The notes under the pieces are model-generated. The model had not been told where the DNA came from and did no database searches. It was given only the letters and a program-made list of their open reading frames with translations. From the NCBI GenBank assembly GCA_041694815.1, contig JBGFSC010000006.1, positions 24,937 to 88,936 of the forward strand: 64,000 nucleotides of DNA, written 5' to 3'. The translations under genes and the position numbers were made by a program. Below are positions 49,363 through 54,740 of the stretch, piece by piece. Each line of letters opens with the position of its first letter. The stretch's first letter is position 1. This stretch comes from Elusimicrobiota bacterium. GTDB taxonomy: Bacteria > Elusimicrobiota > Elusimicrobia > UBA1565 > JACRDR01.

Positions 49363-50022
49363 ATGCGTCCATTGAAAATCATCGGGGTATTAGCGGCGCT
49401 GGCGTCGCCGTCGCCGGCCCTGCCGGCGGATCAGCCGGCGGCCGCCCCCTGGCGGCTGCTCATCATCGGCCCGCCCGGCTCGGGCAAGACCACGCATGCC
49501 TCACGCCTCGCCGCCGAATACGGCGCCCTGCGCGTGAGCAGCGGCGAGTTGCTCCGCGAGGCCGCCAAGACCGATCGGGACATCGCCGATACCATCGCGA
49601 AGGGGCAATTGGTCGATACCCCGACGGTCATCGCCTTGGTGCGCTCGCGGCTCGCGCGAGAGGACGTGCAAAAAGGCGGGTTTATCCTCGACGGCTTCCC
49701 GCGCACGCGGGAGCAAGCCAAGGCCCTGCTGCCGATGCTCCGCGAGCTCGGGCTGCGCCTGGACGCGGTCATCGAGCTGCGCGTTCCCGAGAGCGAGCTC
49801 AAGCGCCGGATCCTGGGCCGCAAGGACGGGCGCAGCGACGACAACGAGAAGGTGTTCGCCGAACGCATGCGCGTTTACAGGGAGCAGACCGAGCCCGTGC
49901 TTCAGTACTTGGGCGGAAAGGTCCCGTTTTTGAGGCCGGATGTCGGCATGAACGACCCCGAGGCCGCTTACCGCAACGTCAAGAAGGCGCTGGAAAGCCT
50001 GCCCAAAAAGCGGCCGGTTTAA
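49363..50022 (+). CDS. adk: Adenylate/NMP kinase (short LID) with signal-like N-terminal extension
   Basis: GPPGSGKTT, SSGELLR, GQLV, GFILDGFPRT, GRSDDNE; about 28-aa extension MRPLKIIGVLAALASPSPALPA. Confidence 0.85.
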   Translation: MRPLKIIGVLAALASPSPALPADQPAAAPWRLLIIGPPGSGKTTHASRLAAEYGALRVSSGELLREAAKTDRDIADTIAKGQLVDTPTVIALVRSRLAREDVQKGGFILDGFPRTREQAKALLPMLRELGLRLDAVIELRVPESELKRRILGRKDGRSDDNEKVFAERMRVYREQTEPVLQYLGGKVPFLRPDVGMNDPEAAYRNVKKALESLPKKRPV

Positions 50023-53000: not shown

Positions 53001-54740
53001 TTCCGTCTTGCCGGTTCCCGTGGCGCCCAACAGAAGCGCCGAGAGTATGGGCTGGCGGCTGTTGGGATTGGCGAAACGGGCCTTGAGCCTGGCGGTCGTC
53101 TGATCGATGAGCGAATCGTGGCCGATGAGATGGGTCCTCAAGAAGCTCTCCACGTTGGCCAGATGCTCCTTGGTCCCGGCGCGCAGGGCGTGCAGAGGCG
53201 TTCCCAGTTCTTGAAGCGCTTCCTCGACGTCGCTTCGCAGTATCTTGGTCCTGGGAGCCTGGGCGAATTCCTCCTGATAACGGAGATAATCCTCCAAGAG
53301 GGGCTTGATCACCGCGATCGTGTTCTCCTGCAGCTTGAGGTTCCCGCTCTCGCGGCTCTGCTGCAGCAGGCCGAGCTGATAGAGGATATCCTTCCTAGCC
53401 GACAATATCCGCGACTCGAGTTCCGCCGGACGATTGCGCCTCCAGGTGGAGGCGGTGTCCAAGGCCTGAACGGCCATGCGCAAGAGGGCCTTGAAGCGGA
53501 AGGCCCGCACGGTAAGCTCGACGGCCGCCTCGACGGCCTCATAGCTGATCTCGACCCCGTTCTCGTACTGTCCCCGTATCTCGGGGCGATAGAGCAGGTT
53601 CTTGGCGGGGGCCTCGGCGATCGGCTCAACGTTGATCAGCTGGCTGCGGCTCTCGAGCGCGGCGTCTCCGGCGAAATATTTCTTGTGCTCGGCCAGCGTG
53701 GTGGCCAGGATGAGCTTGAGCTTGCCCTTGGTCATGGCGGGCTTGAGTTGATCGTAGAAGCTCGTCTGGATATTGCCCGTCGCGGGATCCTTGGCCAATT
53801 GATGGGCCTCGTCGATCATGAGCACCGTGTTGCCGTCGGAGACGATCGCAAGCAGTTCCGAGACCTCTTGGGCGAAGCGGTCGGGAGCCGCCCCGGAGGC
53901 GGCGATGAACTTTCCAGCGTCGAGGGACAACAGCCTCTGGCCGTCCAACACCGTGCCGGTCTTTCCCGCGGCCATGCGCTGCGCGACTCCCTCGGCGATG
54001 GCGGTCTTTCCCACGCCCGGCTCGCCGATCAAGAACACGTTGTTGTAGGCGTTTTGCGTCAGCACGCGGACGATCTTGCCGATCTCGTCATCGCGCAAGT
54101 AGGTGGGAGAGAGCTCTCCCGCCCGGGCGGCCGCCGTCATATCGATCAAATAGGGCTTGAGTCCGTCGTTTTTACCCGGCGGAGCGGACGGGCCACCATT
54201 TTCAGGAGTCGCCACGGCCCCGATGGCGCCAAGACCCATCAAAAGGCCCGTAGGCTCGGCCGGTGAGCCGGTCAGCGCGGAGTAGAGAGCCGCTCCCACG
54301 GCGGCGACGACGACTGCGGCCTTTCCACCATTGAGCAACCTTTCCTTGAGGGGCAGCTCCGGGGAGCCGATGACCTTATTTATCAGTTCTACGCCCGGAG
54401 GGGGGGCGGATCTCCTTACAGTCCCAGCGGGGGCGGCCCCGGCGGCATATTGGGCGAGCCGCCCTGCGCCGCCAACCGCTTCGACCGTAACGTCGCCCAG
54501 GGCCATTCGTGATCCGTCGAAAAGCCGCTCCGCGTGGGATGGCGTGGCCGCGATTTCAGCGATTTTGGGGGCCTTGAGTTCCAGGGGTTTAGACGCCCTC
54601 GCCTCGATCGCGCCGCGCCGCTGATTGCGCTTATGGCTGACGCCGGCGGCGGGCCGGCCCTGGGCGATAGCGGCGAAGGGGAAGGAGGTCCAGAGAAGGC
54701 TCAAGGAAAGCGAGGAAGCGAGCAGTTTCTTGAGATTCAC
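50019..54740 (-). CDS. Large Clp/Hsp100 (ClpA/B-like) double-AAA+ ATPase with signal peptide, hydrophobic segments and long unique C-terminus
   Basis: GEPGVGKT, IDEAH, GATGTGKTE, GSPPGYVG, MDEVEKMHPD, FTSN, FRPEFLGRL, GARAM; N-terminus MNLKKLLASSLSLSLLWTSFPFAAIA. Confidence 0.88.
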   Translation of the reverse strand: MNLKKLLASSLSLSLLWTSFPFAAIAQGRPAAGVSHKRNQRRGAIEARASKPLELKAPKIAEIAATPSHAERLFDGSRMALGDVTVEAVGGAGRLAQYAAGAAPAGTVRRSAPPPGVELINKVIGSPELPLKERLLNGGKAAVVVAAVGAALYSALTGSPAEPTGLLMGLGAIGAVATPENGGPSAPPGKNDGLKPYLIDMTAAARAGELSPTYLRDDEIGKIVRVLTQNAYNNVFLIGEPGVGKTAIAEGVAQRMAAGKTGTVLDGQRLLSLDAGKFIAASGAAPDRFAQEVSELLAIVSDGNTVLMIDEAHQLAKDPATGNIQTSFYDQLKPAMTKGKLKLILATTLAEHKKYFAGDAALESRSQLINVEPIAEAPAKNLLYRPEIRGQYENGVEISYEAVEAAVELTVRAFRFKALLRMAVQALDTASTWRRNRPAELESRILSARKDILYQLGLLQQSRESGNLKLQENTIAVIKPLLEDYLRYQEEFAQAPRTKILRSDVEEALQELGTPLHALRAGTKEHLANVESFLRTHLIGHDSLIDQTTARLKARFANPNSRQPILSALLLGATGTGKTEYARLLGRALWNIEDVEKSLIKYNGGELQEGHRISVIQGSPPGYVGFGETDTLMDRVRRKPQSVILMDEVEKMHPDILNLFLSILEDGAANDAQGRPVDFSNTILVFTSNFGVPPDFDSMTDEAFKEKVWEAIKKPQSPFKDLGSPFRPEFLGRLNVIDVFAPLKEEEVRKIIELRLKQLQGRWKTAHSIEVELADKEALTAQLLAEGYSRRKGARAMNQAIASRLDDPLSGRLIEQALERGDKAIIAADGAIQIEKAPKSKKASGLHSTNPAAQALSDRLEQLLGELKSGELLTTELLDEALNGNLPGGLGSWFSARGAQAEFAAEHRSDDLTQHRGADPALKDSLISLRTRLPEKWSDPVAKAAKVLVGAAKNINLEDTLRAMEGPNWTRSVLEMEQAAATHNGPGKEQLQKKLMDVLERTNSTRHVNLSWQIKKKLVKLKVDFDGRMPYDEEIRLCRLLGRNSADSSVPQDIELADLRRALVKAGGRIGYSKGKKGSSLWLEWPMTEEALPEPEKKPEKEKPEPRPAAKPEAKERKPAAKPADLGAALREAVSPLFEGRTEKKETQAAPKPAAEPIAVPVETPPATPAVDVMKLALSLFDPKTAPQTALENIETLERTIKDNPGALSPELEKFLREAINTFIKQVLGGGRGRTDTSSGYYDRTITTKKISDADAARHQGRWAPVRRVRAILDLYEGLIKSRPDLVNPATFDTLFENRRYLAPAAGDPKGNEVAEWTMKRLTSMAKTAYERRPDLANVNNLISFYEQVEKENPVLAKIPLGMRGQRALKHLGIASLIALPAIAVAAWIGGPEVAVQVQANSNNLSLFNSAATQMQYQHQFAHWLLPVAGAAEAALATVTSGAALVGTLLEKFKGNRTSANTRLTIGLFPQMPVQEVLESIAALDEESGIWKARSGRDSLFDRLKREWPEFKALADNRYPQFIRKTKKSHPMSVLEDIGVSDPRGGWKPKKGRERMFKALLEEWPAFKAATQD

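Follow-up and report, generated by a model that had tools for sequence, protein, structure and literature searches.

P0001 is a divergent Clp/Hsp100 ATPase with predicted membrane hairpins

We analyzed a 64,000-nucleotide stretch of DNA from an Elusimicrobiota bacterium (GenBank assembly GCA_041694815.1, contig JBGFSC010000006.1, positions 24,937 to 88,936 of the forward strand), here called the window. The gene at 50019..54740 on its minus strand encodes P0001, a 1573-residue ATPase that its open reading frame (ORF), Pfam and NCBIfam comparisons and structure alignments identify as a divergent class I Clp/Hsp100 protein. Judged by its sequence, the ORF encodes a genuine, highly divergent, membrane-integrated Clp/Hsp100 unfoldase. 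Our favored explanation, which could prove right or wrong with equal ease, is that P0001 is an inner-membrane-integrated, cytoplasm-facing, FtsH-like extraction or unfolding motor coupled to the 2-oxoglutarate (2OG)/Fe(II) dioxygenase encoded just upstream. Residue numbers refer to P0001 and feature coordinates to the minus strand of the window unless stated otherwise; G000 denotes the source genome.

P0001 starts with a GTG that shares bases with the TGA terminating the preceding gene (GTGA) and that lies behind a Shine-Dalgarno-like GAAGGGGGG. At the other end of the ORF, the TAA overlaps the last bases of an adenylate kinase gene, which is convergent with it. A first-pass annotation, made by reading the bare sequence, had placed P0001 last in the operon of a paralog array; it is indeed the final minus-strand gene of that operon, and a search of the minus strand between 49000 and 64000 revealed no terminator-like site.

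Pfam recognized AAA at residues 235-350, AAA_2 at 564-736 and ClpB_D2-small at 743-825, with no Clp_N (PF02861), which ordinary ClpB matches do carry, and no domain past residue 830. The NCBIfam scores lay below the curated cut-offs (365 versus 1232 bits for ClpB, 363 versus 885 for TssH, also called ClpV, and 332 versus 993 for ClpA); the ClpB score is less than one third of its cut-off, and P0001 falls outside the ClpB, TssH and ClpA equivalogs. The closest solved structures were those of ClpC from S. aureus (6em8) and B. subtilis (3j3t), with P0001 residues 174-830 aligned to ClpC residues 140-798 (E value of about 1e-91). Since ClpC aligned in one stretch and a ClpB structure in two pieces, the short, coiled middle region (residues ~431-505, 53226..53450) appears to be of ClpC length. 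It separates the first nucleotide-binding domain (NBD1; residues ~195-430, 53451..54158) from NBD2 and its D2-small domain (residues ~506-830, 52251..53225).

We then compared the motifs of the four ATPase-bearing members of the family (P0001, P0003, P0122 and L008/G148, described below) in an alignment with the ClpC of G000 itself, three further Clp paralogs and one ClpB. As is typical of class I Clp proteins, P0001 has two AAA+ modules, each with a Walker A and a Walker B motif (GEPGVGKT and VLMIDEAH in NBD1; GATGTGKT and VILMDEVEK in NBD2). Both Walker pairs, sensor-1, the NBD2 arginine finger and sensor-2 were kept in all four members. In P0001, NBD2 is canonical, with a GYVG pore loop, the sensor-1 asparagine, the arginine finger and a sensor-2 GAR, and the pore-2 tyrosine is retained throughout the family. 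NBD1 has AASGAAPDRF where AGTKYRGEF is expected, the tyrosine being gone in 4/4 members, and the RR pair of P0001 is SR, with one arginine only. The aromatic pore residue that class I Clp proteins carry in both rings is thus missing from NBD1 and present in NBD2. Finally, the [LIV]G[FL] loop that docks ClpP was absent after FTSN in all four members, where the region is short and ClpB-like; such loops were seen in ClpC (LGF) and in two other Clp proteins of G000, C2 (LGF) and C15 (VGF). These results bear out the first-pass annotation, which had described a membrane-associated Clp-type unfoldase without a Clp-N domain, with intact Walker pairs and NBD2 GYVG, with SGAAPDRF in place of the NBD1 KYRG, and with no IGF/IGL loop after FTSN; the unfoldase that they support is one without ClpP docking.

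The family is small and its other members are fused to a dioxygenase

A word-indexed search of 5.8 billion clusters returned a single true relative, P0003 (2563 residues, 44% identity over 74% of the query), the remaining matches being ordinary ClpB proteins with ∼33% identity over the AAA+ part. When residues 831-1573 were searched with HMMER against 1.84 billion representatives, eight proteins were found, including the query. P0003 and P0122 (2217 residues, N-terminally cut) have the whole P0001 architecture; P0123, P0124 and P0127 are fragments, the last two of which, judging from the alignment, belong to a single protein; P0125 and P0126 have only the C-terminal module in common with P0001. 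A metagenome scan yielded a single contig, L008, with a frame of >2377 residues, whose protein also occurs in genome G148, split over two contigs. Within the phylum, the C-terminal 743 residues were matched in 5 of 400 other genomes, and the full architecture was found in G148 only. None of the 25 pattern matches obtained by scanning genome contigs with P0001 was a relative. Four ATPase-bearing members are therefore known. A quick tree of NBD2 groups them in a single clade (SH-aLRT, 100) whose branch measures 2.65 substitutions per site; with long-branch effects flagged, the tree does not place this clade firmly relative to ClpB and ClpC.

The gene upstream of P0001 (54737..56293), coupled to it by the GTGA overlap, encodes a 518-residue protein with its own signal peptide that matches the PF10014 2OG/Fe(II) dioxygenases at 99.6 bits (cut-off, 23.1). 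HQD and WH, which make up the HxD...H iron triad, are conserved between this protein and P0003. In all three relatives (P0003, P0122 and L008/G148), PF10014 is fused N-terminally to the hairpin, Clp core and C-terminal architecture. Residues 98-500 of the window dioxygenase align with P0003 residues 198-595 (45% identity), and residues 153-1317 of the ATPase align with P0003 residues 619-1753 (44% identity). Because the two window proteins correspond to consecutive parts of P0003 and their counterparts are fused in every relative, we consider the dioxygenase to be the conserved partner of the ATPase. Residues 1-138 of P0001 have no counterpart at this position in the fused relatives, which argues that the gene split is not a recent frameshift and that the ATPase half has a leader of its own.

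The C-terminal region combines a GHKL-like domain and a helical module

The 743 residues past the Clp core had been described at first pass as a unique C terminus of about 700 residues with a Pro/Lys/Glu linker. The linker was recovered (residues ~1091-1174, 51219..51470; Pro/Glu/Lys-rich and variable in relatives), but the region is not unique, since it has seven relatives and since other Clp-like proteins contain one of its domains. This domain (residues ~902-1090, 51471..52037) was modeled with AlphaFold2 (mean predicted local distance difference test [pLDDT] score of 64.7; core blocks, 64 to 89). Foldseek, the check suggested for the C terminus with the first-pass annotation, gave six PDB matches at an E value of ≤1e-3, all histidine-kinase-like (ChpT, ZraS, HK853, SpoIIAB), and a match in the ESM Atlas agreed, although at 0.88 it is a lead only. 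In the model, residues ~902-1090 adopt the Bergerat fold of GHKL ATPases and kinases and resemble the anti-sigma kinases SpoIIAB, RsbW and UsfX. Pfam HATPase_c did not match the domain, and, by the usual definitions of these boxes, neither the N-box asparagine nor the G1 and G2 boxes are conserved in the alignment of P0001, P0003 and P0122. As its Mg-ATP-binding residues are not conserved, we regard the GHKL-like domain as a probable binding module rather than a kinase.

A hidden Markov model (HMM) of this domain also matched C25, another leader-bearing Clp protein of G000, and giant Clp-containing frames of 1872 to 3365 residues in six related genomes (G150, G341, G314, G264, G232 and G174). 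These giant ORFs carry the GHKL-like domain after D2; at least the one in G341 (L017 5804-13756) has a signal peptide, and the others are frames in L084, L086, L087, L112 and L114.

The C-terminal module is composed of a part A of ∼175 residues, an optional hydrophobic hairpin and a part B of ∼50 residues (W..K.G....F..L...WP.F). P0001 has one copy plus a second part B, and the relatives have two to four copies. In P0001, alignment and model place a helical, ARM/HEAT-like part A with the motif P.RR.R...LY..L...RPDL at residues 1175-1360 (50661..51218) and two part-B copies, each a helix/beta-hairpin/helix unit with the motif W..K.G....F..L...WP.FK, at residues 1465-1573 (50022..50348). The model of the module (mean pLDDT, 59.6), an ARM/HEAT-like solenoid with small helix/beta-hairpin/helix units, had no convincing match among the structures compared. 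The module also exists without a Clp core, in P0125, in its counterpart from genome G192 (L018) and in P0126. The G192 locus (L018 1-7313, G192:C19) contains two tandem signal-bearing ORFs of 1495 and 943 residues that have no Pfam matches, and the longer of these terminates in two module copies that lack the hairpin.

Charge distribution mostly favors a cytoplasmic ATPase

P0001 begins with a signal-peptide-like helix (residues 1-26, 54663..54740) consisting of MNLKK, a hydrophobic core (residues 6-25) and AIA/QG, as called, like all signal peptides here, by sequence heuristics. The signal peptide announced at first pass stands in so far as the n/h/c pattern and the AIA/Q end are there; it is weakened by the unusually basic stretch that follows, with 5 lysines or arginines (K/R) in the first 18 residues and 9 in the first 35. 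A basic, low-complexity leader spacer with the motif AERLFDGSR (residues 27-138, 54327..54662) has no counterpart at this position in the fused relatives. A leader design with a signal, a Pro/Ala spacer and Φ-x-Φ-[FY]-[DS]-G is shared with the relatives (AERLFDGS in P0001, IDRIYSGS in P0003, LDAVYSGA in G148). As a genome-wide mark of leaders, the motif Φ[FY][DS]G[SA] was rejected, since it was not enriched after signal-like N termini (5/783 versus 12/1560).

The hydrophobic hairpin before NBD1 and the two further C-terminal segments reported at first pass were confirmed. The N-terminal hairpin (residues 139-178, 54207..54326) has arms at 141-157 and 164-178 joined by the loop GSPAEP, and it is also present in P0003, P0122 and L008. 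The C-terminal hairpin (residues 1367-1450, 50391..50642) has arms at 1371-1391 and 1434-1447 and a 42-residue loop without any K/R. Counts of K/R in the 15 residues flanking the arms were mostly 3 to 5 in P0001, P0003, L008 and P0123, and those in the loops between the arms 0 or 1. Given as flank/loop/flank, the K/R counts were 3/0/1 and 4/0/3 for the N- and C-terminal hairpins of P0001, 3/0/3, 5/1/4 and 3/0/4 for P0003, 5/0/3 for the N-terminal hairpin of L008 and 4/0/4 for P0123. With some exceptions, this pattern is the signature expected of hairpins with cytoplasmic ends, and for the most part it would put the ATPase on the cytoplasmic face of the membrane. ATP, Fe(II) and 2OG, the cofactors of the ATPase and dioxygenase, are likewise cytoplasmic. 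Cysteine poverty was of no help as a sign of export, because P0001 has 1 Cys in 1573 residues and the cytoplasmic ClpC of G000, the closest named relatives of which are from Elusimicrobia metagenome-assembled genomes (71% and 69% identity), has 1 in 821.

Several observations weigh against a cytoplasm-facing ATPase of the FtsH type. The C-terminal flank of the N-terminal hairpin has only one K/R in P0001 and P0122, and one C-terminal hairpin of L008 reads 1/2/5. The N terminus of P0001 resembles a canonical Sec signal in its positive tip, hydrophobic core and AIA/Q; the signal peptides that open the fused relatives are canonical as well (P0003, MRLKRL...; G148, MLTRLRR...); and the signal peptide of the window dioxygenase is followed by an acidic stretch, a pattern that predicts export. 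A canonical signal combined with a true two-span hairpin would leave both the dioxygenase and the ATPase outside. Moreover, the second hairpin arm has 17 to 19 uncharged residues in three members, enough to span the membrane, so that a single-span solution of the FtsH type is not secure. Leaders of this kind are also carried by an adenylate kinase paralog and by TLC-type nucleotide transporters of related genomes, and both structure models of the C-terminal region are modest, having been built from 5-row alignments. The first-pass annotation had held that an ATPase in the producer's own cytoplasm would speak against its interpretation; the K/R flanks make this location somewhat the more probable one, and the export-type leaders oppose it. 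Leaders of this type recur on other ATP-using enzymes, and the charge pattern and the signal-like leaders point in opposite directions.

A membrane-anchored motor working with a hydroxylase is proposed

Domain content, motifs, the fused state of the relatives, the likeness of fold and the placement of charges are read directly, whereas hexamer formation, topology, threading direction, the use of a protein as substrate by the dioxygenase and the identity of the clients are inferred. P0001 would form a hexameric two-ring unfoldase anchored in the cytoplasmic membrane of the producer by its N- and C-terminal helical hairpins. The two AAA+ rings would lie on the cytoplasmic side, together with the GHKL-like domain and the C-terminal helical module. 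NBD2 would be the threading motor. NBD1 would bind and probably hydrolyze ATP and, since its substrate-gripping tyrosine is lost, may serve in assembly or regulation. The lack of a ClpP-docking loop suggests that proteins are unfolded, extracted or remodeled rather than fed to a protease. As no more than ∼20 residues separate NBD1 from the N-terminal hairpin, the ring would turn its entry face toward the membrane, as in FtsH, an orientation that would suit pulling a polypeptide out of, or across, the membrane. P0001 and the upstream PF10014 dioxygenase may act as one functional unit, in which unfolded polypeptide would be handed to, or taken from, the hydroxylase. The probable role of the GHKL-like domain, which is nucleotide-blind and would lie at the exit face, is to bind a partner or client, and the Pro/Glu/Lys linker would allow the C-terminal module to reach back to the membrane.

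Similar leaders are found on other ATP-using enzymes

The main alternative is that the leader is a true export signal, that the dioxygenase, both rings and the C-terminal domains are periplasmic, and that the hairpin loops point toward the cytoplasm. In that case the order would have several exported machines driven by ATP, P0001 among them; a leader-tagged TLC-type ATP/ADP exchanger would supply their ATP and a leader-tagged adenylate kinase would rebalance the nucleotides. We consider this unlikely, though it deserves to be taken seriously.

In addition to a canonical ClpC, G000 encodes three more Clp-type ATPases that have signal-like N termini, as P0001 and its dioxygenase do: C2 (G000:C2:22715-25135), C15 (G000:C15:3073-5367) and C25 (G000:C25:55338-58088). 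C2 and C15 keep KYRG, GYVG and the ClpP loops, and C25 has a dead NBD1 and a GHKL-like C-terminal domain of the P0001 type. An FtsH-like AAA+/M41 protease encoded just upstream of the window (G000:C9:20388-23826; L034 4389-7827) also starts in this way, with a single N-terminal hydrophobic segment and the motif KPFDGSS.

The gene adjoining that of P0001, adk2 (window 49363-50022, plus strand), is the convergent one that overlaps its end. It encodes a second adenylate kinase with a 30-residue signal-like N-terminal extension, starting at an ATG supported by a Shine-Dalgarno sequence; the canonical adk of G000 lies behind secY. Orthologues of adk2 (43 to 53% identity) were found in 19 other genomes from two families of the same order (8/10 genomes of f2 and 11/48 of f3). 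The 11 loci with a complete 5' end all have a signal-like start, mostly a canonical signal peptide, and 57 to 181 residues before the P loop; the spacers are Pro/Ala/Ser-rich and contain FDG, FSG or FDN in 7 of 16 loci. In one genus, adk2 is preceded in frame by an N-terminal region of >500 residues.

TLC-family (PF03219) membrane proteins, of which G000 has two, were matched in 85 of the 401 genomes of the phylum and in none of 14 control genomes. One G000 gene lies 23 nucleotides behind the FtsH-like gene on the same strand, 1.1 kb before the window start, and the second lies 5.3 kb upstream of C25. Among close orthologues, 9 of 12 have a signal peptide and a spacer of ∼175 residues, with F[SY]G in 8 of those 9. 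Hydrophobicity-based calls of the number of spans in these proteins were inconsistent (9 to 14). The TLC-like genes of L042-L052 (G374, G232, G295, G236, G174, G291, G356, G394 and G282) encode polytopic proteins that begin with a signal peptide and a Pro/Ser/Leu-rich spacer of ∼175 residues with GDEVFSG. Two M13 (neprilysin/PepO-type) peptidases of G000 (C14:5445-7604 and C52:31767-33950) have signal peptides followed by ..VYDGS and ..FYDGA, as in the P0001 leader.

A leader-tagged adenylate kinase and a leader-tagged nucleotide transporter are what an extracytoplasmic ATP supply would need. However, no ATP-driven machine is known to us from the periplasm of any bacterium, and none was found in the literature searched, as far as titles and the openings of abstracts reveal. 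The K/R distribution is inverted at most hairpins relative to what this topology would call for. Neither of the two ClpP genes of G000 has a signal peptide, though the leader-bearing C2 and C15 retain ClpP-docking loops, which argues that such leaders need not mean export. In the leader-bearing TLC proteins, a conserved basic PAKKxPLIARWK directly before the first transmembrane segment of the core argues that the leader end is cytoplasmic. Across the 16 related loci that were read (L039-L054), TLC-like and AAA+ genes showed no conserved synteny, nor are giant or leader-bearing Clp genes restricted to genomes that carry TLC genes, as G264 and G150 have such Clp genes and the TLC query found nothing there.

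A broader and slightly more doubtful claim is that the order runs ATP-powered unfolding and proteolysis outside the cytoplasm, with a shared export leader (a signal peptide, a floppy Pro/Ala/Ser spacer and a short helix ending in F/Y-D/S-G) on the Clp proteins, FtsH-like protease, adenylate kinase and TLC exchanger, and that P0001 and the dioxygenase form a periplasm-facing unfoldase-hydroxylase.

A dual-signal array protein was matched in the source genome only

Upstream of the dioxygenase gene, on the same strand, lies an array of at least 8 paralogs (window 56290-63818) that runs into the end of the contig at 64000. Each array protein has a first signal peptide ending in A/QDFG, a basic linker of ∼30 residues, a second, lipobox-like hydrophobic segment and a domain with conserved cysteines. 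A promoter-like site is present at 61342-61315, in the only sizeable gap of the array. The island with the array, dioxygenase and ATPase genes (window 50001-64000) has a G+C content of 0.56 to 0.64, versus 0.65 to 0.69 in the flanking 40 to 50 kb.

P0001 might be a remodeler or translocase dedicated to this array, handling the lipoprotein-like array proteins at the membrane while the dioxygenase modifies them. This would fit the tight packing of the ATPase and array genes on one strand with no terminator-like site between them, and the post-signal tag [AC][QE]DFG, which is found on the array proteins and on the dioxygenase and in this operon only; the other leader-bearing Clp genes of G000 (C2, C15 and C25) also adjoin small signal-bearing paralog pairs. 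Yet the array protein tested (window 58413-59471) was matched in 1 of the 401 genomes of the phylum, G000 itself, and not in G148, which carries the ATPase, and the fused relative in L008/G148 has other neighbor genes. The contig stops short of the operon start, so that the extent given for the array is a lower bound. The specific link between ATPase and dual-signal proteins drawn at first pass, which co-occurrence in other genomes could have strengthened, is thus not upheld, the dioxygenase being the conserved partner, and we regard a dedicated array remodeler as improbable.

Least probable is a secreted effector or toxin whose colicin- or Inc-like hydrophobic hairpins would enter the membrane of a second cell that provides ATP and 2OG: the signal-like leader and the lower-G+C island full of exported proteins would suit it, and self-inserting proteins also use hairpins with short uncharged loops and charged flanks, but hairpins with Kyte-Doolittle values of 2.1 to 2.75 should act as stop-transfer segments in Sec export, chains of 1573 to 2563 residues carrying as many as three hairpin pairs would make implausible passengers of the Sec pathway, and no secretion-system genes were seen beside P0001 within the window. 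The free effector envisaged in the first-pass annotation is unlikely: the hairpins are sufficiently hydrophobic to hold the protein in the membrane of the cell that makes it, and the K/R at their flanks suit insertion from the cytoplasm.

Comparison with known systems

Clp/Hsp100 machines are textbook examples of soluble cytoplasmic unfoldases. P0001 departs from them in being, by prediction, built into the membrane, in being fused to a hydroxylase in its relatives and in having a nucleotide-blind anti-sigma-kinase-like domain behind the core. Within the literature searched, titles and abstract openings mentioned no bacterial signal-bearing or membrane-integrated Clp/Hsp100 protein and no Clp-dioxygenase fusion, and the combination of a membrane Clp, a 2OG/Fe(II) hydroxylase and a GHKL-like domain was absent from the protein-family libraries scanned. 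If the coupling is real, the favored cytoplasm-facing motor would represent unfoldase-assisted protein hydroxylation in bacteria, or an extraction motor of new design akin to FtsH or to endoplasmic-reticulum-associated degradation. The leader-bearing set of ATP-using enzymes raises the question of ATP-driven machines outside the cytoplasm and makes the contrary, long-assumed rule testable.

Like ClpC (6em8, 3j3t) and ClpB, P0001 has two AAA+ rings, a canonical NBD2 and a D2-small domain, with a middle region of the length found in ClpC; it differs from them in lacking Clp_N, the NBD1 pore tyrosine, one arginine of the RR pair and the ClpP loop, and it adds a leader, two predicted membrane hairpins, the GHKL-like domain and the helical module. 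The ClpB/Hsp104 disaggregases have a coiled-coil M domain of ∼120 residues; the middle region of P0001, as judged by the alignment stretches, appears to be of ClpC length. The GHKL-like domain has 7 to 12% identity to SpoIIAB, RsbW, UsfX and the pseudo-kinase ChpT, its N-box asparagine and G2 box are not conserved, and, unlike these proteins, it sits behind a Clp ring. As for the partner, characterized BsmA/IDO-type PF10014 enzymes are reported to be soluble proteins that hydroxylate free L-amino acids (PMC3684760), whereas the window dioxygenase has a signal peptide, a 260-residue helical tail and a fusion to Clp in the relatives.

The structures of Plasmodium HSP101 (6e10 and 6e11) were among the structure matches of P0001. 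HSP101 is eukaryotic, keeps its N domain and works with a pore formed by a separate protein, EXP2. As a component of PTEX, it is reported to be a signal-bearing ClpB-type ATPase working outside the cytosol of its producer, beside a membrane pore (PMC7355975); in the case of P0001, the leader need not mean export of the ATPase. A ClpC-type motor tethered to a membrane by a two-helix anchor and a large helical scaffold is reported for the chloroplast import motor Tic110-Hsp93(ClpC) (PMC3823011). There, anchor/scaffold and ATPase are separate proteins, whereas P0001 has them in one chain; the likeness is one of design.

FtsH offers a possible working mode, with an AAA+ ring held under the membrane by N-terminal hydrophobic segments and its entry face turned toward the membrane. 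FtsH combines a single ring with an M41 protease domain, and its two spans lie well apart on either side of a periplasmic domain. P0001, in contrast, has two rings, no protease and predicted hairpins at both ends.

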